Notes under the pieces: model-generated
Database searches by the model: none
What the model saw: only the letters and a program-made list of their open reading frames with translations
Told to the model about the DNA's origin: nothing
From: Promethearchaeota archaeon
GTDB taxonomy: Archaea; Asgardarchaeota; Lokiarchaeia; Sigyniarchaeales; SOKP01
Direction: 5' to 3'
DNA length: 41,143 nucleotides
Assembly: GCA_011364925.1 (NCBI GenBank)
Contig: RDOA01000031.1
Coordinates: 1-41,143 of the forward strand
Part shown: piece by piece, positions 859 to 25,588 of the stretch
How positions within the stretch are numbered: position 1 is the stretch's first letter
How the letters are laid out: the number at the start of each line of letters is the position of its first letter
Program-made: the position numbers and the translations under genes

Positions 859-2865
859 TTACTCCCTCCTAGTTATCATTGAGAATATTTGTTCTGAAGA
901 AAATCCTATAATATCTATTGCTGCGCATCTGCAATTTCCTGAACAGGCACCGCAACCTTTACAAAGTGCTTTATTTATTGATGCTACCGTACCAAACCTT
1001 CTATCATCAACAAATTCAATTGCTCCATAGGCACAATTTTCAATGCACATTCCACATCCTGTACATCGATCAGCATGAACCACTGCGAAAAAGGGTTCAA
1101 TCTCTACTTCTCCTTTAGCCATCAGTGAAATTGCACTAGCTGCAGCTCCTTTTGCTTGGGCTACAGAATCAGGTATATCTTTGGGACCTTGCGCTACTCC
1201 TGCTATAAAAATTCCTTCTGTTAAAGTATCAACGGGTCTCAATTTTGGATGTGCTTCTAAGAAGAACCCGTCTGCTGATTTCTGAATTCTTAAAAGACTT
1301 GTAATGGCATCTGAGTCTGCTCTAGGCTCGATACCAGTTGAGAGAACAAACAATTCTACTTCTACTTCAATTGGTTGTTGAAGCAAAGTGTCTTCAGCTC
1401 GGATTATAATATTATGATTCTCAGGATTCTCCCTTACTTCAGCGATTCTTCCTCTAACATAATTAATACCATAATTGGAGGCTGCTGACTCGTAAAATTC
1501 TTCGTATCCTTTACCAAATGCTCGTATATCCATATAAAAAATATAAATATCGGCATCTGGGTGCTTTTCTTTGTATTGCCTTGCTTGTTTGGTAGCGTAC
1601 ATGCAACACACGCGCGAACAATACTGATTTCCTCCTTCTCGGAAATTTCTGCTCCCTACACATTGTAAAAATGCGATACTATGTGGGTCTTTAAGATCTG
1701 AGGGCTTTACAGGTTTTCCAACAACTGGTCCAAAAGAGCTTAGTAAACGCTCCATTTGAAGTCCTGTAATCACATTAGGATATTTACCAAAACCATATTG
1801 CTTGAGTTCGGTCGGATCGTACTCGTCGTAGCCTGTTGCCACAATGATTGTCCCTACCTTAACATTAATGTATTCAGGTTCATCGTCGTACTTAATCGCT
1901 CCTGGTTCACACACATTTTCTCTTGCACAAATTCCGCATTGAACGCAACTATCCATATCAATGGTGTACTGGCTCGGAACGGCTTGAGGAAATGGAACGT
2001 AAATCGCTTTTCTAGTTGCTAATCCTAAATCAAACTCATTTCCAACGGTTATAGGACATGAATCAATGCATATTCCACAACCCGTGCATTTTTCTTGATC
2101 AACATAATGAGGTTTTTTCTTAATCGTTACTTCAAAATTACCTACGTAACCGGACACTTCAGTAACTTCCGAATACGTTAATAATTCAATATTTTTGTCT
2201 CTCGCTACTTCAGACATTTTGGGTGTAAGGATGCAAGAAGAACAGTCCATAGTCGGAAATGTTTTATCAAGTTGCGCCATATGACCACCAATCGTCGGAG
2301 ATCTCTCCACAAGATATACTTTGTAACCTGCAGAACTGATGTTTAATGCTGCATTCATTCCAGTAATACCCCCACCTATGATTAAACAAGCAGGCTCGAC
2401 TTCTACTTTTTGGACCGCGAGTGGAACTAAATTTCTTGCCTTAGCAATCGCTAGTCTTATGTGATCCTTTGCTACTTCATATGCGCCCTCAGGTTCTTTC
2501 ATGTGAACCCAAGTAGAATGCTCTCGAATATTTGCCATCTCAAACAAAAACTGATTTAATCCTGCTTCTTTACACGCAACACGGAAAGTAGGTTCGTGCA
2601 TTCGTGGAGAACAAGCTGCAACAACAACCCGATTAACTAGTCCTGCTTCGATGTCTTCTTTTATCATCTTCTGCCCTACATCAGAGCAAAAAAACTTGTA
2701 TTCGCGACCTACGGCTACATCTGGCAGATTTTTAGCATATTCGACTAAATTTGGAACTGAAACGACACCACCAATATTAACACCACAATGACACACATAC
2801 ACACCAATTTTGGGTTTTTCATTTCCCGTAATATTTAGTTCTTTTTCTTTATCTACTTCTGTCAA
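859..2865 (-). CDS. hdrA: Heterodisulfide reductase subunit A (copy 1)
   Basis: VYVCHCG, ACSPRMHE, NIREH, GGGITG FAD-binding motif, LDKTFPTMDCSSC, QCVGSR, YCSRVCCMY, GPKDIP, and inserted plus C-terminal ferredoxin motifs. TTG start with GGAGG upstream. Confidence 0.97.
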   Translation of the reverse strand: MTEVDKEKELNITGNEKPKIGVYVCHCGVNIGGVVSVPNLVEYAKNLPDVAVGREYKFFCSDVGQKMIKEDIEAGLVNRVVVAACSPRMHEPTFRVACKEAGLNQFLFEMANIREHSTWVHMKEPEGAYEVAKDHIRLAIAKARNLVPLAVQKVEVEPACLIIGGGITGMNAALNISSAGYKVYLVERSPTIGGHMAQLDKTFPTMDCSSCILTPKMSEVARDKNIELLTYSEVTEVSGYVGNFEVTIKKKPHYVDQEKCTGCGICIDSCPITVGNEFDLGLATRKAIYVPFPQAVPSQYTIDMDSCVQCGICARENVCEPGAIKYDDEPEYINVKVGTIIVATGYDEYDPTELKQYGFGKYPNVITGLQMERLLSSFGPVVGKPVKPSDLKDPHSIAFLQCVGSRNFREGGNQYCSRVCCMYATKQARQYKEKHPDADIYIFYMDIRAFGKGYEEFYESAASNYGINYVRGRIAEVRENPENHNIIIRAEDTLLQQPIEVEVELFVLSTGIEPRADSDAITSLLRIQKSADGFFLEAHPKLRPVDTLTEGIFIAGVAQGPKDIPDSVAQAKGAAASAISLMAKGEVEIEPFFAVVHADRCTGCGMCIENCAYGAIEFVDDRRFGTVASINKALCKGCGACSGNCRCAAIDIIGFSSEQIFSMITRRE

Positions 2866-2878
2866 TTTAACAATCCTC

Positions 2879-3835
2879 CTAAGTTAATTGCGCCTTAACT
2901 TTTTCTATAAACGATTCTATAGGTATGAAGGGAGATACTCCCGTTAATTCGTGATTTTTCACTAATCCTAAGAGATTAGGATCAATTCCAAATGATAATC
3001 CTAATAATTGAGTAATGTAAATAACTGGTATCTGATATGGTTCACCAATCATATCTTTATATAAGCTATTTGCCTCCATCTGGCCCAAATCTAGTTGCAA
3101 ATGACAGAAAGGGCAGCAATCAATTATAATATCGGCACCAGCATCTCTTATATTTTCTAATTTTTCTCTTGAGAAGTCAGCTGACACTTCCTTAACAGCC
3201 GTTCTTACTGCACCACCAGCTCCGCAACATTGAAACTTATCTTTATAATCAATACTATTAGCTCCAGTTAATTCTACAAGTTCATCGAGAAATCTTGGGT
3301 CTTCGCATTCCCCTCCCCAAGGTCTTTTATCGCTTGGTTTAACAATGTGACAACCATAATGAACAGCTACTTTTAAATCCTTAAATTTGTGTTTAACAAA
3401 CCCTCTTAAATAATCTAAACCCATATCTTGATATAGTACTTGTACTACATGCTTTGGCTCAATTGATCCCTTGTAATGTCTTCCGACTTTTTCAAGATGC
3501 TCATTAACCATTTTTTTCAAATCGGGTTCGTGTTCTAACTCAAACCAAGCATCCCTAAGCGTACCATAACAACCATTACACCCAGTTATAATATCAACTC
3601 CTAAATCTTCCGCTATTGTAATATTTCGAGCAGCAATCACTAGCCAAGTAGGAATATGAAACGCCCGAAAGACTCCTGGGGCAGGACAACAAGAAGCTCC
3701 TTCTAATTCTAAAATTTCAGCACCCAGATGGTCAAATACTGCTCTGATTGAAGCCTCAATCATAGGATAGCGGTTAGGAGCTACACAACCAAGAAAAAAA
3801 GCGTATCTTCTTTTATTATCTTCACTCATGATCAT
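2879..3835 (-). CDS. hdrB: Heterodisulfide reductase subunit B (copy 1)
   Basis: FFLGC, SCCPAPG, CNGC, HYGCH, CCGAGG and CPFCHLQ CCG-domain motifs. Confidence 0.96.
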   Translation of the reverse strand: MIMSEDNKRRYAFFLGCVAPNRYPMIEASIRAVFDHLGAEILELEGASCCPAPGVFRAFHIPTWLVIAARNITIAEDLGVDIITGCNGCYGTLRDAWFELEHEPDLKKMVNEHLEKVGRHYKGSIEPKHVVQVLYQDMGLDYLRGFVKHKFKDLKVAVHYGCHIVKPSDKRPWGGECEDPRFLDELVELTGANSIDYKDKFQCCGAGGAVRTAVKEVSADFSREKLENIRDAGADIIIDCCPFCHLQLDLGQMEANSLYKDMIGEPYQIPVIYITQLLGLSFGIDPNLLGLVKNHELTGVSPFIPIESFIEKVKAQLT

Positions 3836-3843
3836 TATCCACC

Positions 3844-4452
3844 TTATTTTTCCTCTTCTTTATCTTTTTCAGCCTCAGCCTTTTCTTTCTCTTTTATTTT
3901 TTCGACATTATCCATCAAATCTCTAAAACCGACTGATTTCATTAAATCCTGACATTCCTTGACAGCTTCAGGATGGGTATGAACAGTTGGTGGTAACGGC
4001 GGTAATCCATAAGATTCACGTAAATCTCGCCATTTTTTATTCGCTTCACCGTTAGCAGGTACCCCATGTCCAGTTTCGTAAAATATTTTGTTAGCTAATC
4101 CAAAATGAGCATCCAAAATATGTCCTTCTTCGACAGCAATATTTCTCAGTTTAATAATCATGTCGGTTACTGGTATGTTTCGTGGACATCGCTCATAGCA
4201 AGTATAGCACGTACTACAAAGCCAAATATCAATATCTTCCAAAACAGATTCATCCCCTGTTAACGCTCGTCGAAGAACAGATCGCGTTCGGTACGCTGTG
4301 CGCCTACCTGATGGACAAGAACCAGTACACGTTCCACAATTAATACACGCTCTTAGCTTCTCTAAACCAGCGTCAACAAATTTCTGGGTAATATTGGAAC
4401 TAGTGGATTTATAGACCTTTCGTTTAATATATTTTTCTACATTTTCACTCAT
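3844..4452 (-). CDS. hdrC: Heterodisulfide reductase subunit C (copy 1)
   Basis: CINCGTCTGSCPSGRRT and WLCSTCYTCYERCPR two-cluster motifs; TGHGVP. Confidence 0.96.
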   Translation of the reverse strand: MSENVEKYIKRKVYKSTSSNITQKFVDAGLEKLRACINCGTCTGSCPSGRRTAYRTRSVLRRALTGDESVLEDIDIWLCSTCYTCYERCPRNIPVTDMIIKLRNIAVEEGHILDAHFGLANKIFYETGHGVPANGEANKKWRDLRESYGLPPLPPTVHTHPEAVKECQDLMKSVGFRDLMDNVEKIKEKEKAEAEKDKEEEK

Positions 4453-7718: not shown

Positions 7719-7865
7719 AGGGAAAAATGCAATAATCCTTTTAAATTCAATTTTTTTATTATTATTTGTGATAGAATATTGTTTTAACAAAGTAATTCTT
7801 GAAGATTTATTAGTCAATTTATATTAGATTGAAAATAAATTGAATTTTAAAAATTAGGATAAGAA

Positions 7866-9698
7866 ATGACATTACAATACATTAAACTACAACCACTTTG
7901 GGTACGTCAGTTTCAAAAATCTGTCTATTCTTGTATAATTGCAAATCTATTGGGGGATCCAGACCCTGAAATAATTGGATGTTCATTCAGTGCAGAAATG
8001 AAAGCTTTCGATCTAAAAGGTAATGAAGTTTTCATCACTGAATTCTCTTCGAGCATTACATCTTTTAAAATAGCATCTGTTAGTAAACAGAATAATATTG
8101 AATTAATCTCAGGAGCATTAGATGGGACTATATATGTAATGGATAAAAATGGGAATTCAATTTGGTCAACAAGTTTGAATTCTCCAGTAATTTGTATGGA
8201 AACTGGGGATATAAGAGATGACAGCAGAGATGAAATTATAGTTGGTTTAGAAAACCAAAGATTAATTGGATTGGATAATGAAGGAAAAAAATTTCTGGAA
8301 TTCAAAGCACCAGAACCAATCATGGATTGCACTATTGGTTATTTTTCTGATGGGATAACTAAAAAGATTTTTATATTACTTAAATCAGGGAAAATTCTTA
8401 ATATTCTTAACGATATAGATTCAGAATTGGTATTTGACTTGCAGTATCAACCTACATGCCTAACATTTAGTAACATATTTAACCAGCCAACCTTAATTGT
8501 GGGCGATAAAAGTGGATTCCTAAAAGCTCTTAATTTAAATAAAGAAATTATTGGTAACCATAAATTAGGGGAAAAGGTACAATGCTTGGATACATATACT
8601 ATCTTTACAGAACAAAAAGAGAATACATATTTGGTTGCGGCATCAAAAAATAAAATTACTTTTTTTCAAATAGTTAAAGGTGAAAAGATTGATATTATTG
8701 AAATACCTACGCCAAAAGCTCAACCTCATGTTCTTACAACAGAAAGAATTAATGAAACCTTGGACACACCCCTAGATAATATTACTTCTGATTTGCCATC
8801 AATTCCGGATGCATCAGCTGTGGAACCCCATGATATCCGTGTGCTTAGGGGTGGGCAGATTGAGGGAGGTGAATATCACTTTAAGGTCAAAGTTATCAAT
8901 AACCGAAACTATAACGTTACTAATGTCAACATAAATATACTTTCGTATCCAGAAGAGAGTTTAATTTTATCACGTATAGATAGTCATCCAGAGTTTTCCC
9001 CAGATAATGCAAAATTTCATAAAATTTCAAAAGGTGGAGGTTTTGTAAGTCCTACTTTCGTTTTTAAGCCAAAAAAAGACTGTATCAAAGGAACTGTTCA
9101 TGCAGTGGTTAATTTCATTAATGAAAAAGATCAGATCGATACCATCAATGTAGAACCACACGAGATTCGAATGATATGTGGACTCTTAAAACCAAAAACA
9201 GTTTCAAAAGAAGATTTTGAAAATCTCACAAAAGATCTCCTTGCATATAAAAAAGTTGGTCAAGAATTTACCCTTCCATATAATGTTGATCAATTATATC
9301 AAAAATTAGCTCTTCTACTAAAGAGGAAAAATTTTGCGATAATTGATACTGAAAAAAAAGAATCAGAGGGAAAATTGCAAATAATTATCAAAGGTTTTGC
9401 AGAAGGCACTTTTAGTAAACATTCTGTTGGATTACTATTAGCTTTATCTGGAAGTAAAGGGGAACAATTATCCGTTTTAAAAGTTGATGTCTTTGCTGAG
9501 GATGAAGATATGACTCCTTCTATCATGTCCGAACTTGAAAATTCTGTGAATCCACAAAGTTGTCCTGAATGTCAAGAAAAATTGCCATTAGAGCTCGTAA
9601 GGAAAATATTAGGCGGTTTACCAGTTTTTTGTGAGGAATGTGGTTCAAAATTAATTGAAATTGATGGAGAAATCACAGCAAGTCCTGATAATTCCTAA
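7866..9698 (+). CDS. Beta-propeller + adaptin/coatomer appendage-like (Ig + platform) + Zn-ribbon protein
   Basis: Repeated blades (NLLGDPDPEIIG, ELISGALDGTIYVMD, GDIRDDSRDEIIVG); Pro/Thr/Asp linker; beta-rich segment FKVKVINN..NVTNVNI..., followed by LLKPKTVSKEDF and a mixed alpha/beta platform-like region; terminal CPEC...CEECG. The ORF is secure; the appendage call is by resemblance. Confidence 0.65.
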   Translation: MTLQYIKLQPLWVRQFQKSVYSCIIANLLGDPDPEIIGCSFSAEMKAFDLKGNEVFITEFSSSITSFKIASVSKQNNIELISGALDGTIYVMDKNGNSIWSTSLNSPVICMETGDIRDDSRDEIIVGLENQRLIGLDNEGKKFLEFKAPEPIMDCTIGYFSDGITKKIFILLKSGKILNILNDIDSELVFDLQYQPTCLTFSNIFNQPTLIVGDKSGFLKALNLNKEIIGNHKLGEKVQCLDTYTIFTEQKENTYLVAASKNKITFFQIVKGEKIDIIEIPTPKAQPHVLTTERINETLDTPLDNITSDLPSIPDASAVEPHDIRVLRGGQIEGGEYHFKVKVINNRNYNVTNVNINILSYPEESLILSRIDSHPEFSPDNAKFHKISKGGGFVSPTFVFKPKKDCIKGTVHAVVNFINEKDQIDTINVEPHEIRMICGLLKPKTVSKEDFENLTKDLLAYKKVGQEFTLPYNVDQLYQKLALLLKRKNFAIIDTEKKESEGKLQIIIKGFAEGTFSKHSVGLLLALSGSKGEQLSVLKVDVFAEDEDMTPSIMSELENSVNPQSCPECQEKLPLELVRKILGGLPVFCEECGSKLIEIDGEITASPDNS

Positions 9699-9810: not shown

Positions 9811-11211
9811 CTAAGAACCTTCTACTTTATCGTGGTATTTATGCCTTAAAGTACTTGCTGCTAAAGTAAAGCGATTAAACAATCCTGCTGGATCTTTAAT
9901 GAATTCTAAAACTTCGTCAGGATCTTTGTCTTTACAGAGTGAACCCAAAGTGCTTATAAACTGCACACCAGCATCCTTTACGCCTGTAGTTGCTCCAAAA
10001 CATCCTAAACAAGGAGCATTGGCTTTATTTGGACAGATCGTGCCACAACCGGCTTGAGTAACTGGCCCTAAACAAACATACCCTTGTTCTAAAAAGCAAG
10101 TATCCATCGTCGATAATCCTTCGTAATCGCGTCTTAATTGAGCAGGTAGTTTATCGGTTATGTCTCGATCGCAATGGCTACATACGGATTTTGTACTAAA
10201 TTTGAAATTAGGATCGTCTCTTAATAAATATAACGCGAGACCAACTATATCGTCAATAATTTCGATTCCAGAGGGAGAAACATCAAGAGCAAATCTTCTA
10301 TCCTCTCCGATTAATACATCCTTTAACTTAAAACTCTTAGGCTCATAGGCTAATCTTTGTAGTATATCTCCACGAAAATAAAAGTTAGTAATGTTTGTTC
10401 CACCCAGAAATAAGTCCGAAAAATGTTGTAAGCTTGCAGCATGGTCTGGGCTTAATGAATGTTCATTGAATACAATTTCTCTTAATTGAATGACTTTTTC
10501 ACCAGGTTTATCCGTTGATTTGTAACAACCATAACAAATATCTCCTTTATTAGGGCACATCAAATCGCACCCCGCTGCTGTAATAGAACCGTAACATAAA
10601 ATATTTTGGTTCAAGAAGCAACCTTCCTCTTTTAAATTGCATGTATTGCAGACACACGCATTTTTATCGAGATTAGCTGGTTCTTCTCCGACTAATGTTA
10701 GCAAATATGAAATAGTAGCAATAATATTGTTAGTAGTTGGGGGACAACCAGGTATGAATACATCTACATTGATGAAATCATCGAGATTAACAATAAATTC
10801 CTCAAAACCAGGAAGATGGTTAGTTGGTTCTTTAGGATCTTCAGTAGTTATAGATTCCGTTTCCATAAATTTTCGATTGACAAGCTCTTCCTTATCGTAT
10901 AAGTTTGCTAAACCTGCGACGCTTCCATAACAGGGGCAGGCTCCAAACGCTACAATTATCTTACATTTCTTCCTCATGAGCTTGGCATTTTCAGTGTCTT
11001 TTTTAGTTCTTACGACGCCTTCAATAAATCCTATTATAATATCATTATCAGATCTTTCCTCGAGAGATGCTAACTTATTATCTACCACTGCTGGCCAATA
11101 AACAATATCTAATTGTGGTAAGATGGGCAGTAAACCTAAATGAGCGTTCAATAAACTCTGGTGACAGCCCCAACAACTGCTTAGCTGCATGAAAGCTACT
11201 TTTACAGGCAT
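9811..11211 (-). CDS. mvhG: MvhG-like [NiFe]-hydrogenase small subunit with duplicated C-terminal Fe-S module
   Basis: SSCWGC, IEG, GACPCYG, IPGCPP; two copies of CxxC...CFLxQxxxCxGxxTxAGCxxxCPNK..CxGC. Confidence 0.8.
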   Translation of the reverse strand: MPVKVAFMQLSSCWGCHQSLLNAHLGLLPILPQLDIVYWPAVVDNKLASLEERSDNDIIIGFIEGVVRTKKDTENAKLMRKKCKIIVAFGACPCYGSVAGLANLYDKEELVNRKFMETESITTEDPKEPTNHLPGFEEFIVNLDDFINVDVFIPGCPPTTNNIIATISYLLTLVGEEPANLDKNACVCNTCNLKEEGCFLNQNILCYGSITAAGCDLMCPNKGDICYGCYKSTDKPGEKVIQLREIVFNEHSLSPDHAASLQHFSDLFLGGTNITNFYFRGDILQRLAYEPKSFKLKDVLIGEDRRFALDVSPSGIEIIDDIVGLALYLLRDDPNFKFSTKSVCSHCDRDITDKLPAQLRRDYEGLSTMDTCFLEQGYVCLGPVTQAGCGTICPNKANAPCLGCFGATTGVKDAGVQFISTLGSLCKDKDPDEVLEFIKDPAGLFNRFTLAASTLRHKYHDKVEGS

Positions 11212-11304: not shown

Positions 11305-11985
11305 TTACCCAGATTTTTGAGATCTTTTAAGGAGTTCAGACCAAAAAGGTTCCTTATATTCACCGGAATAGTTAATTTTATCTACTTTAACCTTAATTGC
11401 GCCAGACGAACACGCATTCTCACACGCGCCACATTTAACACAAGTGGCTCGCACGTTAAAATCTACCTTTCTTTTCTTACCTTTATCGCTTACTTTTTCT
11501 TCTTTGAAAAACGCCCCAGTTGGACATACTTCAAAACATGACATACAAGAAACGCATAAATCCCAATTAATCTTTACTTTCCCATCGACGTATACTTTTG
11601 CCATAGTACCCGATTTCTTACATTTGACTATTTGAGATTCTAATTTTGGCAAGACTTTTGCTTGAACAATTTCGATTTCTTCTAAAGGAACAGGTTTACC
11701 ATCTTTTTTCAATGTAATTGCTGAAAACGGGCACATATAAGCACAAGTTCCACAATAAGAGCATTTTTCTGCATCGGGGATGTCAGGATACATATCTTCT
11801 GTCTTTTTTTTGACTAAATTATGATGATATTGTTTTATAGCTTCTTGAGGACAGACTTTTGAACAAACATAACATCCAACGCACAAATCCTTATTAAATT
11901 CAATCGCTTGGTTTTTCGAATAGAAACTTAAAATTACTTCATTCTTATGATCGTTAACAATTCTTTCAACTCTAGGATAAGACAA
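11305..11985 (-). CDS. Polyferredoxin with four [4Fe-4S] motifs, resembling the N-terminal half of FwdF
   Basis: CVGCYVCSKVCP, CSYCGTCAYMCP, CVSCMSCFEVCP, CVKCGACENACS; FwdF-like CPFSAITLKKDG...PKL segment; TTG start. Confidence 0.8.
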   Translation of the reverse strand: MSYPRVERIVNDHKNEVILSFYSKNQAIEFNKDLCVGCYVCSKVCPQEAIKQYHHNLVKKKTEDMYPDIPDAEKCSYCGTCAYMCPFSAITLKKDGKPVPLEEIEIVQAKVLPKLESQIVKCKKSGTMAKVYVDGKVKINWDLCVSCMSCFEVCPTGAFFKEEKVSDKGKKRKVDFNVRATCVKCGACENACSSGAIKVKVDKINYSGEYKEPFWSELLKRSQKSG

Positions 11986-11987
11986 GT

Positions 11988-12413
11988 TTAATTACCTCTT
12001 CGTATTGGGTTAGGTCCTAACTCTTTAAGTTCTTTTGTGTATTCCTTAGCAACTTCAGTTAAGTAAACTCCTTCTGAAGCAGAAACAAATATGTATCTTG
12101 CTCTCTTGGGATTAATTCCAAACTGTTTTAAATACCTATGAAGTATAGGCATTTTTCGAACTGTTTTAAGGTTTCCTTCTATATAATGGCAATCTCCAGG
12201 GTGGCAATGGCTAATCAGTACACCATCCGCACCATTCATTAAAGCATTTATAATGAATTGGGGATCAATTCTTCCTCCACACATTACTCTCACAATTCGT
12301 AAATTTGCTGGGCGTTGCATTCGCGAAGTCCCAGCTCCATCTGCACCTGCATAAGAACACCAATTACAAAAAATTCCTAAAATATAAGGATCAAATGCTT
12401 CTGAACTACTCAA
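11988..12413 (-). CDS. mvhD: MvhD [2Fe-2S] subunit (copy 2)
   Basis: FCNWCSYAGAD, RVMCGGRID, HCHPGDCHY, VSASEG. Start reassigned from 12458 to the in-frame TTG at 12413, giving a short 8-nt overlap with the end of hdrA. Confidence 0.92.
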   Translation of the reverse strand: MSSSEAFDPYILGIFCNWCSYAGADGAGTSRMQRPANLRIVRVMCGGRIDPQFIINALMNGADGVLISHCHPGDCHYIEGNLKTVRKMPILHRYLKQFGINPKRARYIFVSASEGVYLTEVAKEYTKELKELGPNPIRRGN

Positions 12414-14433
12414 CTTCAACTTCCTCTTTTTCTGGTTTCTTAGGAATAGCGGTTTCAATCATGGGTAATATCTGTGCATCGCCAAAATGGTTTTGAATAA
12501 TCGCTTTAGAAGGGCAGCCTGCTACGCAAGTACCGCAACCTTTACACAAGATATCATTTATTTCAGCCACGTTTTCAATTTCGTTGAAGGTTATGGCATT
12601 AAAAGGACATAAACTAATACATGATTTGCACCCTGCGCATTTATGACTTAAAACTATTGAGTAATAAGGAACAATCTCAACCTCACCTCGTGCCATTAAG
12701 GTTGAAGCGCTAGAAGCAGCAGCCTTAGCTTGAGCAACAGTATCGGGAATATCTTTTGGTCCAACAACATTTCCAGCAACAAAAATACCTTCAGTTAGTG
12801 TATCAACTGGGCGTAATTTAGGATGAGCTTCCATTAAGAATCCATCTTCTGTTTTAGTTGCTGTTACATTAAAAATTCGAGCTATATCATCGATATCTTC
12901 TCGAGGTTCTAAACCGACTGACAATACAACCATATCTACTTCTAGCTCTAATGGTCTTTGTAACGTGGTGTCTTCAGCTCGTACGATGACATTTCCATTC
13001 TCTGCTTCCAATAATTCTGCAACTCTTCCTCTGATGAACTTAATTCCATAATTTTTAGCCGTGTCGTTGTAAAACTCTTCGTATCCTTTTCCAAATGCTC
13101 TAAGATCAATATAGAAAATAAATATTTGCGCATCGGGATGTTTTTCTTTGTAGGAACGAGCTTGTTTTGTAGCATACATGCAACAGACTCGGGAACAATA
13201 TTTTCTTCCTTTTCCAGTAAACTCACGGCTCCCAACGCATTGTACCCACACAAGTTTTTTTGGTTCTTTTTGATCTGAAGGTCTTCTCACCTTTCCTCCA
13301 GTTGGACCGTATGAGGAAAGTAATCGTTCCATCTGAAGTGCGTTTATTACATTTTTTATTCTTCCAAATCCATATTGTTTCATTCGTCTAGCATCGTAAG
13401 GATCGTATCCTGTCGCTAATATAATAGTTCCAACCTTTATATCTACATATTCGGGTTTATCGTTATATCTTACTGATTTTGTAGGACACACTTCCTTACA
13501 AATCCCACACCGGATACAATGGTTCATGTCGATTGTATATTGACCTGGGACTGCTTGAGGAAAAGATAAATAAATCGCTTTTCTTGGTTTCATCCCTAAA
13601 TCGAATTCGTTTCCACACACTACAGGACAAGTGTCTACACAATGTCCACAACCTGTACACGTATCCTGATCGATATAATGGGGATATTTAACGATTTTAA
13701 CTTGAAAATTACCTACATAGCCATCGAGTGATACAACCTCAGAATAAGTCATCAACTCGATATTTGGATTACGTGCTATTTCGCTCATTTTAGGAGTTGT
13801 AATACAGGATGAACAATCCATAGTTGGAAATGTTTTATCAAGTTGAGCCATATGACCCCCTACCGTAGGTGATTTATCAACTAAGTAAACTTTGTATCCT
13901 GAATTTGCCAAATCCAAAGCTGCGTTAATTCCAGCTATACCTGCTCCAACAACTAATGTAGAAGGTTCTACTTTTACAGTCGTAACTTCTAACGGCTTAA
14001 GCTCACTAACTTTCGCTACAGCCATCCTTATGTGGTCTTTTGCTATTTCAGTAGCTCCAGGAACATCGTTCATAGTTACCCACGTGCAGTGTTCCCGTAT
14101 ATTAGCTTGTTCGAAAAGGAACTTGTTTAGACCACCTTCTTCACATGCTCGCCTAAAAGTTTCTTCGTGCATTCTTGGAGAACAAGAAGCTACTACGACT
14201 CTATTAATTTTTCCATCTTTGATATCTTCCATAATCATGCCTTGTCCGATATCTGAGCACATGAATTTGTATTCGCTCGCAAGTACAACATAGGGCAAAG
14301 TTCTTGCGTAATCACACAATTTTGGAACATCTACGACACCCCCAATATTAACTCCACACCAGCAGATATAAACTCCAATTTTAGGGGGTTCTCTCCCATT
14401 GAGTTCAGCTAGATTCTTAACTTTTGTTACCAT
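12406..14433 (-). CDS. hdrA: Heterodisulfide reductase subunit A (copy 2)
   Basis: VYICWCG, SCSPRMHE, NIREHC, GAGIAG, LDKTFPTMDCSSC, QCVGSR, YCSRVCCMY, GPKDIP and ferredoxin motifs. Confidence 0.97.
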   Translation of the reverse strand: MVTKVKNLAELNGREPPKIGVYICWCGVNIGGVVDVPKLCDYARTLPYVVLASEYKFMCSDIGQGMIMEDIKDGKINRVVVASCSPRMHEETFRRACEEGGLNKFLFEQANIREHCTWVTMNDVPGATEIAKDHIRMAVAKVSELKPLEVTTVKVEPSTLVVGAGIAGINAALDLANSGYKVYLVDKSPTVGGHMAQLDKTFPTMDCSSCITTPKMSEIARNPNIELMTYSEVVSLDGYVGNFQVKIVKYPHYIDQDTCTGCGHCVDTCPVVCGNEFDLGMKPRKAIYLSFPQAVPGQYTIDMNHCIRCGICKEVCPTKSVRYNDKPEYVDIKVGTIILATGYDPYDARRMKQYGFGRIKNVINALQMERLLSSYGPTGGKVRRPSDQKEPKKLVWVQCVGSREFTGKGRKYCSRVCCMYATKQARSYKEKHPDAQIFIFYIDLRAFGKGYEEFYNDTAKNYGIKFIRGRVAELLEAENGNVIVRAEDTTLQRPLELEVDMVVLSVGLEPREDIDDIARIFNVTATKTEDGFLMEAHPKLRPVDTLTEGIFVAGNVVGPKDIPDTVAQAKAAASSASTLMARGEVEIVPYYSIVLSHKCAGCKSCISLCPFNAITFNEIENVAEINDILCKGCGTCVAGCPSKAIIQNHFGDAQILPMIETAIPKKPEKEEVEVE

Positions 14434-14448
14434 ATTTATATACCTTCT

Positions 14449-15402
14449 TTAAGCAGAATCTCCTATTTTAGTTAATACAGGTTTCATGGGTGTAAATGGA
14501 GGTACTCCTTTTAACTCTGGGCTTTTAATTAGGCCCATTTCTTCTGGAGTCATACCTATTGCTAATCCTATTAGTTGAGTAAAATAAAGAACTGGAATAT
14601 TAAAAGGAGCACTGATTTTATCTTTAAAAATATTATTTACTTCCACTTGTCCTAAGTCGAATTGAAGGTGACAAAAAGGACAACCAGTTATTATTACATC
14701 TGCTTTAGCAGCGGTCATATTTTCCAGTTTTTCTCGGGTATAATCGAGGGATAGTTCTTTGAAAGCACCTCTCACTCCACCACCCGCACCACAACACATA
14801 AATTTATCTTTATAATTTAGACTTTTACATCCCGAAATTTCTACTAATTCGTCAAAAAACGTTGGATTCTCGCATTCCATATCCCAAGGTCTTAATTTAG
14901 CAGGTTTTGTGAGATGGCAACCGTAATGAACAGCAAGATTTAGATTTAGTGGTGTTTTTCTCCCGTATTTTGTTCTATTTCTTATTTTTTCGGGACCGAT
15001 ATCGTGATACATAATATCGACAACATGTCGGATTTCGATAGTTCCTTTAAATTCACGCCCGATTTTTGCGAGATGTTCGTTAACTTTTCTTCTTTTTTCC
15101 TTGTCCTCTTTTAATGTATGATTTACTTCGAGTAAACTTCCATAACACCCGTTACACATTAACGCGATATCTAAACCGAGCTCTTCGGCAATCGTTATAT
15201 TTCTTGCTCCTACAACAAGCCATGTTTCGATATCAAATCCTCGGAATACGCCAGGAGCAGGACAGCATGACGCTCCTTTCATATCCACCAATTCTATTTT
15301 AAATTTTTCGAAAACAGCTCTAGTTGCTCTTTCAATAAAAGGGTATCTATTAGGGATAACACACCCTAAAAATAATGCAAATTTTGAGTCATTACTAGCC
15401 AT
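14449..15402 (-). CDS. hdrB: Heterodisulfide reductase subunit B (copy 2)
   Basis: LFLGC, SCCPAPG, CNGC, HYGCH, CCGAGGG, CPFCHLQFD. Confidence 0.96.
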   Translation of the reverse strand: MASNDSKFALFLGCVIPNRYPFIERATRAVFEKFKIELVDMKGASCCPAPGVFRGFDIETWLVVGARNITIAEELGLDIALMCNGCYGSLLEVNHTLKEDKEKRRKVNEHLAKIGREFKGTIEIRHVVDIMYHDIGPEKIRNRTKYGRKTPLNLNLAVHYGCHLTKPAKLRPWDMECENPTFFDELVEISGCKSLNYKDKFMCCGAGGGVRGAFKELSLDYTREKLENMTAAKADVIITGCPFCHLQFDLGQVEVNNIFKDKISAPFNIPVLYFTQLIGLAIGMTPEEMGLIKSPELKGVPPFTPMKPVLTKIGDSA

Positions 15403-15407
15403 AATTA

Positions 15408-15980
15408 TTAACTTTCCTCTTCACCTTTTTTTTTTTCGTAATCACCTACTCCTGTTAGCTTATCAAATTCCGTACTCTTTAAAAGAGTTTGAATTTCTTT
15501 TTCTGCTTCAGGATATTGGTGCGTAGTTGGTGGAAGTTCATTTAACTTATGATATTCCCGCAATTTTTTCCATTTTTCTTCGTTAATAGGAACACCATGT
15601 CCTGTGTTGTAAAACATTTTACAGAGCGCGATATGAGGTTCTTGCATATACCCTTCTTTGACTGCCAAATTTCTAAGAGAAATTATAACATCCGTAACAG
15701 GTACACCACGAGGACATCTTTCCAAGCATGTATAGCAAGTGCTACAGAACCATAACTCTTTATCTGAAAGTATTTCTTCTTTTAATCCTAGCTGTACTTT
15801 TTTCATTAAAGATCTTGTTCTAGAAGCAGTTCTTCTTCCACTTGGACAACTGCCAGTGCAAGTTCCACATTGAATGCACGCACATAACTCTAAATAACCA
15901 GCGTCCCTTAGTAATCTAGTGAGATCATCACTCACATATGTAATCTTTTCTGGTTTGATATTTTCCATTACACTTTCCAC
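15408..15980 (-). CDS. hdrC: Heterodisulfide reductase subunit C (copy 2)
   Basis: CIQCGTCTGSCPSGRRT and WFCSTCYTCLERCPR. GTG start, or ATG at 15968. Confidence 0.95.
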   Translation of the reverse strand: MESVMENIKPEKITYVSDDLTRLLRDAGYLELCACIQCGTCTGSCPSGRRTASRTRSLMKKVQLGLKEEILSDKELWFCSTCYTCLERCPRGVPVTDVIISLRNLAVKEGYMQEPHIALCKMFYNTGHGVPINEEKWKKLREYHKLNELPPTTHQYPEAEKEIQTLLKSTEFDKLTGVGDYEKKKGEEES

Positions 15981-21455: not shown

Positions 21456-22346
21456 TTAGACTTGTATCCCATCCAATAATAGTAAATTATAGATTTTCTG
21501 CCAATAGTCTTTTATGTTCCAATCTTTTTTCTTTTTTATTTCTTCAGATAAAGCCATAAAAATGCCCTTTATGCTAATTGTATGAAAATAATTGATCGAA
21601 GGAGCGATAAGGGCAATCATGTATTGTTTTTCTCCAAACCTTTCGTTTTCATCAGGATAAGAATCGAAAAAGAGATAACCACGAGTGTTCAAGTTTTTTA
21701 TTTCTAATAAAACACCCTCAGCCTTGGTAATCTTATCGTTCCCATATATTGAAGTCGCTACCGTAAATAACTGATTTACAATACTATCTAAAGAAATCGG
21801 GAACAAACTTTCTTCGGGGTAATATTTGTATAATTCTGGACCATATTTATCATCCCAAAAAGCAAGAAATAGGCAGAGAAAAAAATCATAGGAACCACTC
21901 TCCGATTCCATTTCTATATTTAAGGATGTAAAAGAGTCCTCAATTTTACTATTTAATTCCTTTATTCTTCTATTATGAGTAATTCGTCCTGCTAATGTTG
22001 CAAGTAATTCTTTCTCGTTGAATGGTTTGGTTAAATAATCGTCTACACCTAGCGATTTTCCAAATCTTATGTCTTCATAAGTAGTTTTGGCAGTAAGAAA
22101 AAGAAAAGGAATCCTATTCCAGCGAGGGTTGTTTGAAATTTCTTTAAAAAACTTATAACCATCCATTACAGGCATCATTATGTCGCTTATAATTAATTCC
22201 GGAACTTCTTCAAGACGAGATAGAACTTTTAGAGCCTCTTTTCCATTTTTTGCAGTTAAAGCCTTATAGTTATTAGATTCTAATAATAAGTTTATAGCGT
22301 ATAATAAATCAACATTATCTTCAACTACAAGAATCTGAGGCTTCAA
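21456..22346 (-). CDS. Response regulator: receiver domain plus uDENN/longin-like output domain
   Basis: Intact REC (VVED, phosphoacceptor D55 in IISDIMMPVMDG, FLTAK, TKPF). The C-terminal domain starts LFLAFWDDKYGPELYKYYP and contains DENERFGEKQYMIALI. The REC call is secure; the longin call is by motif resemblance. Confidence 0.85.
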   Translation of the reverse strand: MKPQILVVEDNVDLLYAINLLLESNNYKALTAKNGKEALKVLSRLEEVPELIISDIMMPVMDGYKFFKEISNNPRWNRIPFLFLTAKTTYEDIRFGKSLGVDDYLTKPFNEKELLATLAGRITHNRRIKELNSKIEDSFTSLNIEMESESGSYDFFLCLFLAFWDDKYGPELYKYYPEESLFPISLDSIVNQLFTVATSIYGNDKITKAEGVLLEIKNLNTRGYLFFDSYPDENERFGEKQYMIALIAPSINYFHTISIKGIFMALSEEIKKKKDWNIKDYWQKIYNLLLLDGIQV

Positions 22347-22397
22347 GATAAATCCAATTGAATATTAATTTAAAATTCTTTTACAATAGAATTAGGG

Positions 22398-25022
22398 TTA
22401 ACTATTATATATTTCTTTTTCAATTCTTGGAAGAAAAATGTAAAAAGATGTTCCATGACCATATTCGCTCTCGACATACACTTCTCCAGAGTGGAGTTTT
22501 ATCAATTCTTTCGCAATAGACAAACCTAATCCTGTTCCCGGAATATCAATGACTTCTTCTGACCTAAAAAATCTTTGGAAAATCATTGAAATATCTTTTT
22601 CTGAAATCCCTATCCCCTCATCTTTAATTTGGAATAAAACTCCGTCTCTATCATGTGTGTTATATTTCCCCTTATAATGATCGATTGCTTTGATCTCAAT
22701 GACATTCTGTTTTCTTGAATACTTTATCGCATTGTTAATAAAAATGCGAAATATTTGATCTATCTTTTTACCATCCCCGTACAGTTTAATTTCTTCGCTA
22801 ATATCTCTTATAAAAATTATATCCTTCTCTTTTCCAATTGGTTCCATTAATGTTAAAATATCATCAATAATGATCGATGGTTTATATTCGACCCATATTA
22901 ACTTAGCCTTTCCTTCGTCGATTCTAGACAGGGTTAAAATGTCTTCAATTAAATCTTTTAAGAGATAAATGTTCCTTGAAATTCCCTCCCTCAATTTCCT
23001 TTCCACTTCTGGATTAATATTATCTTTGTGGTTCTCTAGGAACTCAATCGACATTGTCAAAACGCTTACAGGTGTTCTTAGCTCGTGAGATACAGTAGAA
23101 ACAAACCGTTCTAATCTTTCTTCCGCTTCTTTTTTGGCAGTTATTTCCAATCCATAAATATTTGCATACCCTTTTCCCGGGATAGGAACAATAAATAGAT
23201 TAAAAACTCGCTTTTTAAGCTCTACATCTATTTCAATATTATTTCCCTTAGAATATGCCTCATTGACTGATTCCATAAGAATTTCTGGGATTTTACTGCC
23301 CTCTTTTATGTCAAACAGATCTTGACTCGAAGCGTTCGCGATCAGAACATACTTATCACTCACTCTAAAGATAGGATTTGGGTTTTCCATAGGGAACTTT
23401 GCCATATCAGCAATTTTTTCTTGAGCTAATTTTTGAGCACTAATGTCTGTTATAAAAGCCATGGCACCTTTAAATGTACCATTCGTATCAAGAATAGGAG
23501 AGGTTCTTAAAGTTGTAAATACTTTTCTCCCAGATTTGTGTATAAATTCAAACTCGAGATCTTCTTTTATTCCCCGTTTGCGTCGTTCAAGATTTATTTC
23601 TGCCATCTTTTTCCCCTCGTCGTCTACAAACTCATAAAGATTTGAACCCATCATCTCACTAATCTCGTAGCCAAGCATATTTGCCATGCTTTGATTTACG
23701 AAAGAAGTGTTGGCCTCATCATCAATTACCCATATGCCTTCCAAAGAATCTTCCACGAGCATTCTATATTTTTCTTCAGACTCCTTCAATACTGTTTCAA
23801 ATTTACTGTGTTCAGTAATGTCAGTAAAGTTTTGAATTATCCCTATAAGTTCTCCTTTCACATTTCTATATGGCACTGATCGCACAAGACTTACGATTTG
23901 TCTATTATCTTTCAGTTTTGATGTCATCTCATGCTCGTAATGATTAACTCCTCTTTTTATTTGCTTCATTGAACAAATTTCGGTATTACATCGATGACCC
24001 AAATAATTAAACTCCGGATCGTTACACTTTTTGCCTAATATATCTCCCTCAGAAATTTGGAAAAGTTCAGAATAAGTTTTATTAATCCGTATAACCTCAC
24101 AATCTTTCCTTATTATTCTCATTGGTAAAGAAGCGTCAAAAATTTGCCCAAATTCAGAATACATTTGTTCTAAGTCAGTTGCTCTACTTCTTAATGTATC
24201 GTCGCTTAACTTCAACTTCCTAAGGAGTAAACCGAATGGATATTTTAAACCAATCTGTATTATCGCTTTGTACATCAGGAAAAAGGCTATTATTTTTAAG
24301 ATATGACCAATAAAATTAGAAATATCAAATACTCCTACATAAAAAGTAAATGCTAATTCTGAAACTATAGTTACGCTAATTGAGGCTATGATTAAATGAA
24401 ATATTTTTGTGTCAAACTCACTTCGAAACTTATATAAAACTCCTATAGAAGCAAACAGTATCAAAATAATTATGTATTCACTAATAATTTTAAATGGCGT
24501 TTGATACCCGATCCCACCCCCAATTTCGACGTAACAGACTGGAAAAATACCGAAAAAGATGGTTAGAAAAAGAATCGAACTGATTAATATTCCACCGACC
24601 ATTAAGTAACTCGCTTTAACTTTTTTATTTATTACGAGTGAACCAAAAAGGTAAGAAAGTGATTGCCAATATCTTGCAGCGATCCACAATTGAGTTGGGA
24701 GGTTTGCATCGTAACCAATAAAAATAGCCATATCGGAGTAAGATAATGTATGGAGTAAATCTATTACGCCTACAAAAAGGAATGAAGTACCGACAATTAG
24801 AAAAAATGAACTATTCATATACTTTCGAGAATTCCAACCAATAAAAAAAATCCCTCCTGAAATTACAACACTAATTATTTCAGCAATAGAATGAAACAGA
24901 AGAAAACTATAGAATCTAAGTAAGATTGTAAGGACTAATCCTATACTAAAAATAATATATTCAAGTATCTCACGATAACCTTTTAACTTGATATTATTTG
25001 AATCTAAAGATTGATCTAACAG
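22398..25022 (-). CDS. MASE3-PAS membrane sensor histidine kinase
   Basis: MASE3 motifs (LLFHSIAE, DLLHTLSY, NLPTQLWIAARY, SELAFTFY, GHILK); 2-3 PAS units; SHELRTPV; NAIKY, DEGIG, GTGLGL. The frame is open upstream of the ORF-track ATG (24818) to a TAA at 25028-25026; the likely start is CTG at 25022. Confidence 0.9.
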   Translation of the reverse strand: MLDQSLDSNNIKLKGYREILEYIIFSIGLVLTILLRFYSFLLFHSIAEIISVVISGGIFFIGWNSRKYMNSSFFLIVGTSFLFVGVIDLLHTLSYSDMAIFIGYDANLPTQLWIAARYWQSLSYLFGSLVINKKVKASYLMVGGILISSILFLTIFFGIFPVCYVEIGGGIGYQTPFKIISEYIIILILFASIGVLYKFRSEFDTKIFHLIIASISVTIVSELAFTFYVGVFDISNFIGHILKIIAFFLMYKAIIQIGLKYPFGLLLRKLKLSDDTLRSRATDLEQMYSEFGQIFDASLPMRIIRKDCEVIRINKTYSELFQISEGDILGKKCNDPEFNYLGHRCNTEICSMKQIKRGVNHYEHEMTSKLKDNRQIVSLVRSVPYRNVKGELIGIIQNFTDITEHSKFETVLKESEEKYRMLVEDSLEGIWVIDDEANTSFVNQSMANMLGYEISEMMGSNLYEFVDDEGKKMAEINLERRKRGIKEDLEFEFIHKSGRKVFTTLRTSPILDTNGTFKGAMAFITDISAQKLAQEKIADMAKFPMENPNPIFRVSDKYVLIANASSQDLFDIKEGSKIPEILMESVNEAYSKGNNIEIDVELKKRVFNLFIVPIPGKGYANIYGLEITAKKEAEERLERFVSTVSHELRTPVSVLTMSIEFLENHKDNINPEVERKLREGISRNIYLLKDLIEDILTLSRIDEGKAKLIWVEYKPSIIIDDILTLMEPIGKEKDIIFIRDISEEIKLYGDGKKIDQIFRIFINNAIKYSRKQNVIEIKAIDHYKGKYNTHDRDGVLFQIKDEGIGISEKDISMIFQRFFRSEEVIDIPGTGLGLSIAKELIKLHSGEVYVESEYGHGTSFYIFLPRIEKEIYNS

Positions 25023-25048
25023 GCTTTATCAATTCCTTTTTTTATTTT

Positions 25049-25588
25049 TCATATAGCGGACTTCTGAAAAATGGTATAGATCGAGGTTTTAAAGATTCGG
25101 TAAGGAATGTCGTTGGGTATCAACTTTTTTATTTCACTTACTAAGAATTGGATCATCCCTTTATTAATATCTTTTTTTATAAAATCTAAGTCTGGATCAT
25201 ATTTATGAAGAAATACTGAAAAATCAAGGGCAATCTTGAATTTCCTTAGTAATTTGATGATCTCAGCAAGATATTCTAAAGCAATATTATAACGATCTCT
25301 ATCCTGCACATCTAAAACAAAAATTAGTTTACTCGCACCTTGAAGGTGATCGTAAAAATTGGTGAGATATTCTTCCCGAAACCGCTCTTGACCCCCAAAA
25401 TCCCATATACTAAATGTTGAGCCTAAGGTTCGAAATTTGTTAATTTCAAAATTCCTCGTTGGTGTAATAGAACTAAATGAAGAAAGATTTTTCACTCCTT
25501 TTAGACACATCACTATAGAAGTTTTTCCGCTGTTGTCCAACCCCATTATAATTATTTTTTTCGTATTTTTAGAATCCTTTTTCTGCAT
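25049..25588 (-). CDS. Small GTPase, Arf/Rag-like
   Basis: G1 GLDNSGKTS, G2 PT, G3 WDFGGQ, G4 HKYD, G5 TSIY. HKxD and TSI match Rag/Gtr-type rather than NKxD/SAK-type motifs. Confidence 0.9.
   Translation of the reverse strand: MQKKDSKNTKKIIIMGLDNSGKTSIVMCLKGVKNLSSFSSITPTRNFEINKFRTLGSTFSIWDFGGQERFREEYLTNFYDHLQGASKLIFVLDVQDRDRYNIALEYLAEIIKLLRKFKIALDFSVFLHKYDPDLDFIKKDINKGMIQFLVSEIKKLIPNDIPYRIFKTSIYTIFQKSAI

Follow-up and report, generated by a model that had tools for sequence, protein, structure and literature searches.

The window analysed here, positions 1 to 41,143 (in nucleotides, nt) of contig RDOA01000031.1 of a Promethearchaeota archaeon (assembly GCA_011364925.1), encodes P0001, a protein of 610 residues that combines a six-bladed beta-propeller, a hinge, a beta-sandwich with an alpha/beta platform, and a Cys4 zinc ribbon. 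Structure prediction identifies the sandwich and platform as an ear of the type found in adaptins. The ear and ribbon recur as the tails of many Asgard membrane proteins, and the propeller gene is linked across several Asgard lineages to genes for a pair of membrane receptors. With a probability that we put slightly above one half (about 0.55), P0001 belongs to a kinase-less transmembrane receptor cassette that is specific to Asgard archaea, and serves in it as the cytoplasmic adaptor subunit.

Domain organisation of P0001

P0001 is the product of an intact open reading frame (ORF) at positions 7866-9698 of the plus strand, identified by direct reading. A homologue search returned 79 homologues, exclusively from Asgard archaea. 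A sequence scan found no signal peptide, transmembrane (TM) segment or any other hydrophobic segment, indicating a soluble protein. The whole-chain AlphaFold2 (AF2) model, built on an alignment of 42 orthologues, has a mean predicted local distance difference test (pLDDT) score of 73.6 and places, after the propeller and hinge, a beta-sandwich at residues 324-437, a region of helices and strands at residues 448-560, and a small C-terminal ribbon.

The propeller occupies residues 1-272 (7866-8681, plus strand, as for all parts of the ORF), which form 24 strands in the AF2 model. Direct reading together with the alignment resolves six repeats of about 44 residues each; the count of six blades for P0001 is nonetheless a model-based one. 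Each E-[IL]-[IV] strand is followed by a conserved small residue (G38, G83, G127, G175, G213 and A259), and acidic loops precede these E-[IL]-[IV]-x-G/A strands, as in GDIRDDSRDEIIVG (residues 114-127). Between propeller and ear lies an acidic, proline-rich hinge (residues 273-322; 8682-8831). Residues 276-321 have pLDDT values below 50, include no helix of at least four residues in the AF2 model and are unconserved among the 42 orthologues, indicating a disordered, flexible linker. The chain ends in a zinc ribbon (residues 561-610; 9546-9695), whose cysteines C566, C569, C589 and C592 are invariant in the orthologue alignment and which gives weak matches to DZR and LysW-type zinc ribbons. A first-pass annotation, made by eye from the DNA sequence, had described an N-terminal propeller with acidic loops, a flexible linker and a zinc ribbon, and all of these features are borne out. 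A close relative from a Logan assembly (P0034, 783 residues) has the same propeller and ear, but its hinge is interrupted by a TIR_2 domain (residues 332-435).

The C-terminal half is predicted to fold as an adaptin-type ear

Residues 318-610 were modelled separately, from an alignment of 50 diverse relatives (model mb4a11646e58d), giving a pLDDT of 90.1 and a predicted template modelling (pTM) score of 0.73. In this model the strands of an immunoglobulin (Ig)/GAE-like sandwich, the proximal ear subdomain (residues 323-437; 8832-9176), begin at residue 324. The distal subdomain, comprising the junction and an alpha/beta platform of TBP/helix-grip-like type, spans residues 438-560 (9177-9545). 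The first-pass annotation had placed a beta-sandwich from about residue 323, a junction at HEIRMICGLLKPKTVSKEDF, and a platform-like region after it. The model agrees on each point, with HEIRMICGLLKPKTVSKEDF (residues 432-451) positioned exactly where the last strand of the sandwich gives way to the first helix of the platform.

Strong structural matches to the ears of vesicle-coat adaptors came from a Foldseek search of the PDB with the C-terminal half. The AP2 alpha-adaptin ear ranks first (E 7.6e-9), and the search also returned the beta-COP ear (9qpq_H, 9.9e-9), the AP2 beta2 ear (5.6e-8) and the gamma-COP ear (1.4e-7); these top ear matches each span about 250 columns, which is the whole of the target. 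Subunits of the BBSome score less well, with E values of 4e-5 for BBS9, 2e-4 for BBS7 and 1e-3 for BBS2. A second, independent structural search, in which the C-terminal half was compared with all representatives, gave Z scores of 15.1 over 205 residues for the AP2 beta2 ear, 14.2 over 211 for the AP2 alpha ear and 12.4 over 213 for the gamma-COP ear, as compared with 12.1 over 180 for residues 410-625 of BBS9. Considered separately, the platform matches that of the AP4-beta ear (Z 13.9, root-mean-square deviation (rmsd) 2.5 Å, 116 residues), and the sandwich matches the GGA2 GAE domain (3mnm, Z 9.8) and the gamma2-adaptin ear (2ymt, Z 9.5). Matches to single subdomains (Ig domains, KA1, Bet v 1) reach Z 11.7 at most. 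The overall rmsd of the two-subdomain ear matches is 10-15 Å, indicating that the angle between the subdomains differs. As modelled, the C-terminal half is an adaptin-type ear, and it is closer to the ears of AP2 and COPI than to BBS9.

Other assignments for this half of the protein were rejected. A generic Ig or CARDB domain with no platform, the outcome that the first-pass annotation had named as counting against its own proposal, does not describe the model, in which a platform is present and resembles that of the AP4-beta ear. A core like that of ArnA/ArnB or Sec23/24, with a VWA domain, sandwich and zinc finger distributed across two genes, was also considered; ArnB matches the sandwich only, at Z 9.8, which is the level of generic Ig domains. 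Matches of the platform to KA1, Bet v 1 and AMPK-type domains (Z 9-10) are weaker than those to ear platforms.

The likeness to eukaryotic ears is one of structure. The Pfam families Alpha_adaptinC2, Alpha_adaptin_C and B2-adapt-app_C gave no match at E ≤ 1, and a profile made from 50 module sequences retrieved only zinc ribbons from the PDB sequences. Language-model (Atlas) features give clusters of eukaryotic ears a score of only 0.76, a lead rather than evidence. A single-sequence search of the PDB sequences with the whole of P0001 returned nothing significant. Taken together with the search using the propeller profile described below, the PDB-sequence searches provide no sequence-level proof of homology to adaptins or to BBS proteins.

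The propeller and its relatives

In a rigid-body search of the PDB with the whole model, only the propeller aligned, and it scored about equally against several propellers: Z 24.8 for the WD40 propeller of beta'-COP, 23.7 for WDR5 and 23.4 for an NHL propeller, with BBS chains absent from the top 50. The modelled propeller fold is generic, and does not discriminate between propeller families.

When the 42 orthologues were scanned with Pfam, BBS2_Mid matched 40 (best 1.9e-6), Beta-prop_BBS7 matched 36 (best 3.5e-8), Itfg2 matched 26 and PHTB1_N matched 13, with the BBS2_Mid, Beta-prop_BBS7 and Itfg2 matches mostly below the Pfam threshold; the generic propeller families ACSF4 and CGLA matched all 42. 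P0001 itself scores 22.9, 21.1 and 19.9 bits against the BBS2, BBS7 and PTHB1 families, all below the cut-offs of 27-28.6. A profile of the propeller family searched against PDB sequences ranked ITFG2 first (E 0.003) and BBS1 fourth (0.056), and each of the ten top-scoring named Atlas clusters (0.90-0.94) either belongs to BBS2, BBS7 or ITFG2 or is an archaeal FG-GAP/BBS2_Mid cluster. While these affinities are weak, they are consistent, and on sequence grounds they indicate an FG-GAP-like propeller with BBS2, BBS7 and ITFG2 as its nearest named relatives. ITFG2, the propeller of KICSTOR (PDB 9v80, 25ge), is the best PDB sequence-profile match, although the similarity is weak and confined to one or two blades, and ITFG2 has neither an ear nor a zinc ribbon. 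KICSTOR is a nutrient-sensing complex. No literature linking KICSTOR with archaea was found.

A profile of the propeller alone retrieved 173 proteins of 151-499 residues; where a source is named, it is in each case an Asgard one (Thor, Sigyn, Loki, Promethearchaeota). No relative outside Asgard is named among these matches, although the word prefilter could miss distant eukaryotic ones. The ear is not a constant part of this family. Sigynarchaeial orthologues are 45% identical to P0001 over residues 6-269 and then continue into an unrelated tail of about 115 residues. Thorarchaeial orthologues of about 479 residues (minus-strand genes at L011:7808-9241 and L010:7059-8489; alignment A5) have no ear; a Cys4 zinc ribbon directly follows the propeller, and the roughly 165 helical residues after it look, by eye, like tandem winged helices. 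Across the 201 genomes of the phylum that were searched, full-length orthologues were found in only a few genomes of the same family as the source genome: G049 (79% identity), G189 (two copies, at 63% and 42%), G198 and G165.

The ear and zinc ribbon form a mobile cytoplasmic module

An exhaustive HMMER search with residues 318-610 found 289 representative clusters with the ear and ribbon, whose proteins range in length from 84 to 2867 residues. The N-terminal partners of the module include SBBP, LVIVD, NosD/beta-helix, TSP3, WD40 and PQQ domains and HEAT repeats, and the propeller of P0001 is shared by only 2 of 147 module representatives. Upstream of the module, 98 of 135 proteins have a hydrophobic segment; in 67 the segment ends no more than 100 residues away (median 59). 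On average, 3.3 lysines and arginines are present in the 15 residues that follow the segment, compared with 0.46 before it, which places the module on the cytoplasmic side of the membrane. Judged by these sequence features, the module occurs mainly as a juxtamembrane tail, on the cytoplasmic side, of surface proteins and polytopic membrane proteins of Asgard archaea. Tail-bearing examples among P0084-P0230, such as P0089, P0091, P0103, P0124, P0171 and P0181, are either polytopic proteins or giant surface proteins whose heads are of SBBP, LVIVD, NosD or TSP3 type.

In an unrooted FastTree phylogeny of 140 modules, the ears attached to the propeller family form one clade (support 100), and the tails of three polytopic membrane proteins are placed closest to it (support 95). 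Given that propeller and ear module have separate histories, the fusion is best read as a single, lineage-restricted domain shuffle.

All 43 genomes of one other family have multiple copies of the module, which often lie in tandem arrays and number at least six in several of these genomes; going by source names and Atlas taxa, this family is probably Thorarchaeial. In the genome that encodes P0001, a single-sequence query, the only search made there (no profile search was run), found no ear paralogue. Two module proteins have further domains of note: P0111 (780 residues) has an EAP30/Vps36 domain of the endosomal sorting complex ESCRT-II after the module, and P0131 (705 residues) has N-terminal HEAT repeats before it, which is an adaptin-like order of trunk and ear. 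In the Thorarchaeial genome G087, three ear-module proteins of 370-420 residues are encoded in tandem, interrupted by an EamA transporter gene (L012:2752-7354).

Linkage to a pair of membrane receptors

The P0001 gene follows three genes in the same direction (plus strand). The first encodes a polytopic membrane protein, P0083 (4760-5494). The second and third, identified as partner genes from Pfam matches and conserved linkage, encode P0002 (5527-7254), a TM-HAMP-TPR-VWA membrane protein in which the DxSxS MIDAS motif is present, and P0003 (7254-7718), a small protein with a TM segment and a HAMP-like domain. A P0002-type gene lies upstream of the orthologue of P0001 in loci L002, L003, L004/5, L006, L008, L010 and L011. 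The receptor pair and the propeller gene occur together in eight loci of Loki/Hermod-type, Sigyn and Thor genomes, among which the same loci are named (with L008/9 for L008), and the Thor loci L010 and L011 have a different gene order. The linkage thus spans four Asgard lineages, with propellers 20-45% identical, and two gene orders; the other neighbours change, apart from a decarboxylase gene.

Both membrane proteins have an extracellular dCache domain in most cassette loci: orthologues of P0002 in other lineages add this domain, and the counterpart of P0003 elsewhere is a protein of about 500 residues with dCache and HAMP domains. The receptor pair of the window has no dCache domain. P0083 is found upstream only in this dCache-less form of the cassette; a counterpart of 246 residues stands at the same place in L003, which is also dCache-less, and a P0083-type protein may replace the lost sensor. 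In four of the eight loci a gene for an arginine/ornithine decarboxylase directly adjoins the cassette. The enzyme is of the PvlArgDC type in L002 (9943-10581) and L006 (9186-9815), and of the pyridoxal phosphate-dependent Orn_Arg_deC type in L010 (798-2639) and L011 (13630-15465). These neighbours hint at arginine or polyamine status as the signal that the dCache sensors monitor.

An AT-rich spacer of 147 nt (7719-7865, plus strand) precedes the P0001 ORF. By direct reading, a T-run follows the stop codon of the upstream gene, and a TATA-like TTTATATTA stands about 40 nt ahead of the ATG. A spacer of 77-151 nt is kept in the other loci. The spacer may contain a promoter of the P0001 gene's own.

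A proposed adaptor role and the nature of its output

In the adaptor model, the sensor would be formed by the two membrane proteins, the TM-HAMP-TPR-VWA protein and its TM-HAMP partner, mostly with extracellular dCache domains. Since the propeller is always inherited together with the receptor pair, it most likely docks on the cytoplasmic TPR-VWA scaffold of the receptor. In the Loki/Hermod-type lineages, the hinge of about 50 residues tethers the adaptin/COPI-type ear and the zinc ribbon. Many Asgard membrane proteins have this module at the end of their cytoplasmic tails, and we therefore infer that P0001 provides in trans an interaction hub that is built into those proteins in cis. P0001 would then recruit the same cytosolic partners to the activated or clustered receptor, and ESCRT-linked sorting or turnover is a candidate output.

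Several observations weigh against this model. The link between P0001 and the receptor pair is one of gene adjacency only, and the 147-nt spacer with its possible promoter parts P0001 from the upstream genes. ESCRT genes are absent from the window and from the related loci alike. Among 15 genomes of the same genus, a full-length orthologue was not found in 12 and the other three gave weak matches only. Such a patchy distribution of the full-length protein implies that its function is dispensable.

A different output has also to be considered, in which the receptor pair holds or releases P0001 in response to amino acids or polyamines, and the variable C-terminus acts on gene expression or on an enzyme, and not on sorting. 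This proposal overlaps with the adaptor model and differs from it in output only. The dCache sensors of most cassette versions and the decarboxylase genes beside half of the loci would be accounted for, as would the resemblance of the Thorarchaeial C-terminus to tandem winged helices; the best PDB sequence match, ITFG2, moreover belongs to a nutrient-sensing complex. The cassette of the window, however, has neither a dCache domain nor a decarboxylase neighbour, and we know of no nucleic-acid or enzymatic role for adaptin-type ears. A signalling output of this kind is the best placed of the alternatives, and is unlikely.

Comparison with the BBSome

The whole chain of P0001 most closely resembles core subunits of the BBSome. 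When the full model was searched against the PDB with Foldseek, the first nine matches were to BBS9, BBS7, BBS2 and BBS1 (E 2.8e-17 to 5.8e-13, over 538-716 columns), ahead of propellers of DDB1, SF3B3, intraflagellar transport (IFT) proteins and G-beta (E about 1e-11 to 1e-12). An unbiased search thus recovers the resemblance to BBS proteins that the first-pass annotation had noted by eye. P0001 and the BBSome core (BBS2, BBS7, BBS9, BBS1; PDB 6vbu, 6xt9, 6voa) have in common the order propeller, GAE-like sandwich and platform.

There are also clear differences. BBS2, BBS7 and BBS9 consist of a seven-bladed propeller, an hx helix, GAE and platform domains and a coiled coil, and the GAE domains serve heterodimerisation (PMC7018513). 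The BBS propellers have seven blades with velcro closure, whereas the modelled propeller of P0001 has six. The AF2 model shows no hx heterodimerisation helix between propeller and ear, and the disordered hinge stands in its place. The terminal coiled coil of the BBS proteins is likewise replaced: the models of P0001 end in one helix (547-560) and then the Cys4 zinc ribbon. Furthermore, the ear is optional in the propeller family of P0001, and the family is linked to receptors, as opposed to Arl6 or IFT for the BBSome. The BBSome subunits act together with an Arl6-type GTPase, TPR subunits (BBS4, BBS8) and a PH subunit (BBS5). Beside P0001, the neighbouring gene encodes TPR repeats, fused to a membrane HAMP-VWA protein; no GTPase gene adjoins the cassette in the related loci, and a Rag/Arf-like GTPase gene lies 15 kb away in this window only. 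The BBSome-core-like architecture proposed in the first-pass annotation is thus upheld for the domain order and the whole-chain similarity, and fails for the blade number, the hx helix and the coiled coil.

A stronger interpretation is that P0001 is a true BBSome or proto-coat homologue, which shares a common ancestor with BBS1, BBS2, BBS7 and BBS9 and which, with the neighbouring TPR protein (compare BBS4 and BBS8), would form a primitive cargo-sorting membrane coat. The whole-chain ranking, in which generic propellers score worse, argues for this interpretation, as do the affinities of the propeller for BBS2, BBS7 and ITFG2 in sequence and language-model comparisons, the match of the ear to the GAE and platform domains of BBS9, the TPR repeats next door, and the listing of an Asgard-eukaryote structural cluster annotated as BBS7/ITFG2 in a 2026 preprint. 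The architectural differences argue against it, as does the better fit of the ear to AP2 and COPI ears than to BBS proteins. The ear occurs in only some lineages of the propeller family and elsewhere on unrelated domains, so that the fusion looks like one lineage-restricted shuffle; the cassettes of the related loci have no linked Arl/Arf GTPase, and the distribution is patchy. We consider common descent with the BBSome slightly less probable than a signalling output. The related suggestion of the first-pass annotation, a proto-coat or adaptor subunit, holds in so far as the modules are joined in one chain. The mobility of the ear, the ear-less propeller orthologues and a sensor-cassette context without GTPase or coat genes speak against its proto-coat part.

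Elements of the adaptor model and of common descent could also be combined. The cassette would then represent a forerunner of the cargo adaptors of eukaryotes that has survived in prokaryotes. A BBS2/BBS7-type propeller-GAE-platform subunit, a true homologue of the BBSome core and of ITFG2-type propellers and not the product of a convergent shuffle, would assemble with a TPR scaffold on a transmembrane receptor, and the Asgard-wide tails of ear and zinc ribbon would be a cis-encoded sorting tag for the same machinery. This scenario is improbable, and ranks below descent from a common ancestor with the BBSome. The least probable explanation is that P0001 is a free-standing scaffold, functionally untied to its neighbours, with a neutral conserved adjacency; in every locus the gene is preceded by a spacer of 77-151 nt that may hold a promoter, but the linkage has been kept across four lineages and two gene orders while other neighbours changed.

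Relation to known ears and propellers

The two-subdomain structural matches that best fit P0001, the ears of AP2 alpha and beta2 and of COPI gamma- and beta-COP (PDB 1w80, 3h1z, 1e42, 1r4x, 9qpq_H; Z 12.4-15.1 over 205-213 residues; Foldseek E 8e-9 to 6e-7), combine an Ig sandwich, a platform and a flexible hinge, as P0001 does. The large subunits of adaptin and COPI complexes have a HEAT/solenoid trunk, whereas P0001 has a propeller in its place and an additional zinc ribbon. No sequence-level similarity was found between the ear of P0001 and the AP2 and COPI ears, and the orientation of the subdomains differs.

Adaptin ears have been described in archaea. Pfam adaptin-ear domains are present in Asgard genomes (Eme et al. 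2023, PMC10307638). Archaeal and Asgard adaptin appendage regions are described as an IG-like and a TBP-like domain, in some cases with a zinc ribbon, and are proposed to be an ESCRT-linked interaction hub; the same work notes proteins of haloarchaea in which IG-like domains come after a WD40/PQQ-like propeller (Makarova et al. 2024, 10.1101/2024.02.06.579148). These appendage proteins have the same two-subdomain ear and zinc ribbon, as a mobile module of multidomain Asgard proteins. P0001 differs from them in its N-terminal partner, a six-bladed propeller of BBS2/BBS7/ITFG2 type, and in its context, a dCache/HAMP-TPR-VWA receptor cassette and not an ESCRT locus; neither the propeller-ear fusion nor the receptor cassette was found in the text read. 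A 2026 preprint reports an Asgard-eukaryote structural cluster annotated as BBS7/ITFG2, matching the Köstlbacher 2026 catalogue. No literature was found on the BBSome in Asgard archaea, on a BBSome-like chain or on this receptor cassette. Archaeal adaptin-ear regions are therefore already published, and the new combination is that of a BBS2/BBS7-type propeller with the ear in a receptor cassette.

If the adaptor model is correct, Asgard archaea had already joined a propeller of the BBS/ITFG2 type to a hinged, adaptin-type ear and wired it to transmembrane receptors. The tails of ear and zinc ribbon suggest a general way of marking or clustering Asgard membrane proteins. P0001 alone does not demonstrate a BBSome or a vesicle coat in archaea. 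The propeller-ear combination in a conserved receptor cassette and the ear as a common cytoplasmic tail nevertheless merit experiment, and one part of the origin of membrane trafficking is made testable through the cytosolic partners of the archaeal ear.

Other genes in the window

A Rag/Arf-like small GTPase is encoded on the minus strand at 25049-25588, 15 kb from P0001, and was seen in this window only. It stands beside genes for a MASE3-PAS histidine kinase and a response regulator (21456-25588, minus strand); this group lies 12-15 kb from P0001 and is unlinked to the cassette in other loci. Among those ORFs of the window that were scanned with Pfam, none was recognised as a large hydrogenase subunit. 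Two sets of HdrA/HdrB/HdrC-like genes lie at 859-4452 and 11988-15980 (minus strand). The latter set also has an MvhD-like gene (FlpD, 11988-12458), and is followed by genes for a polyferredoxin (11305-11985) and an MvhG-like small subunit of 466 residues (9811-11211).

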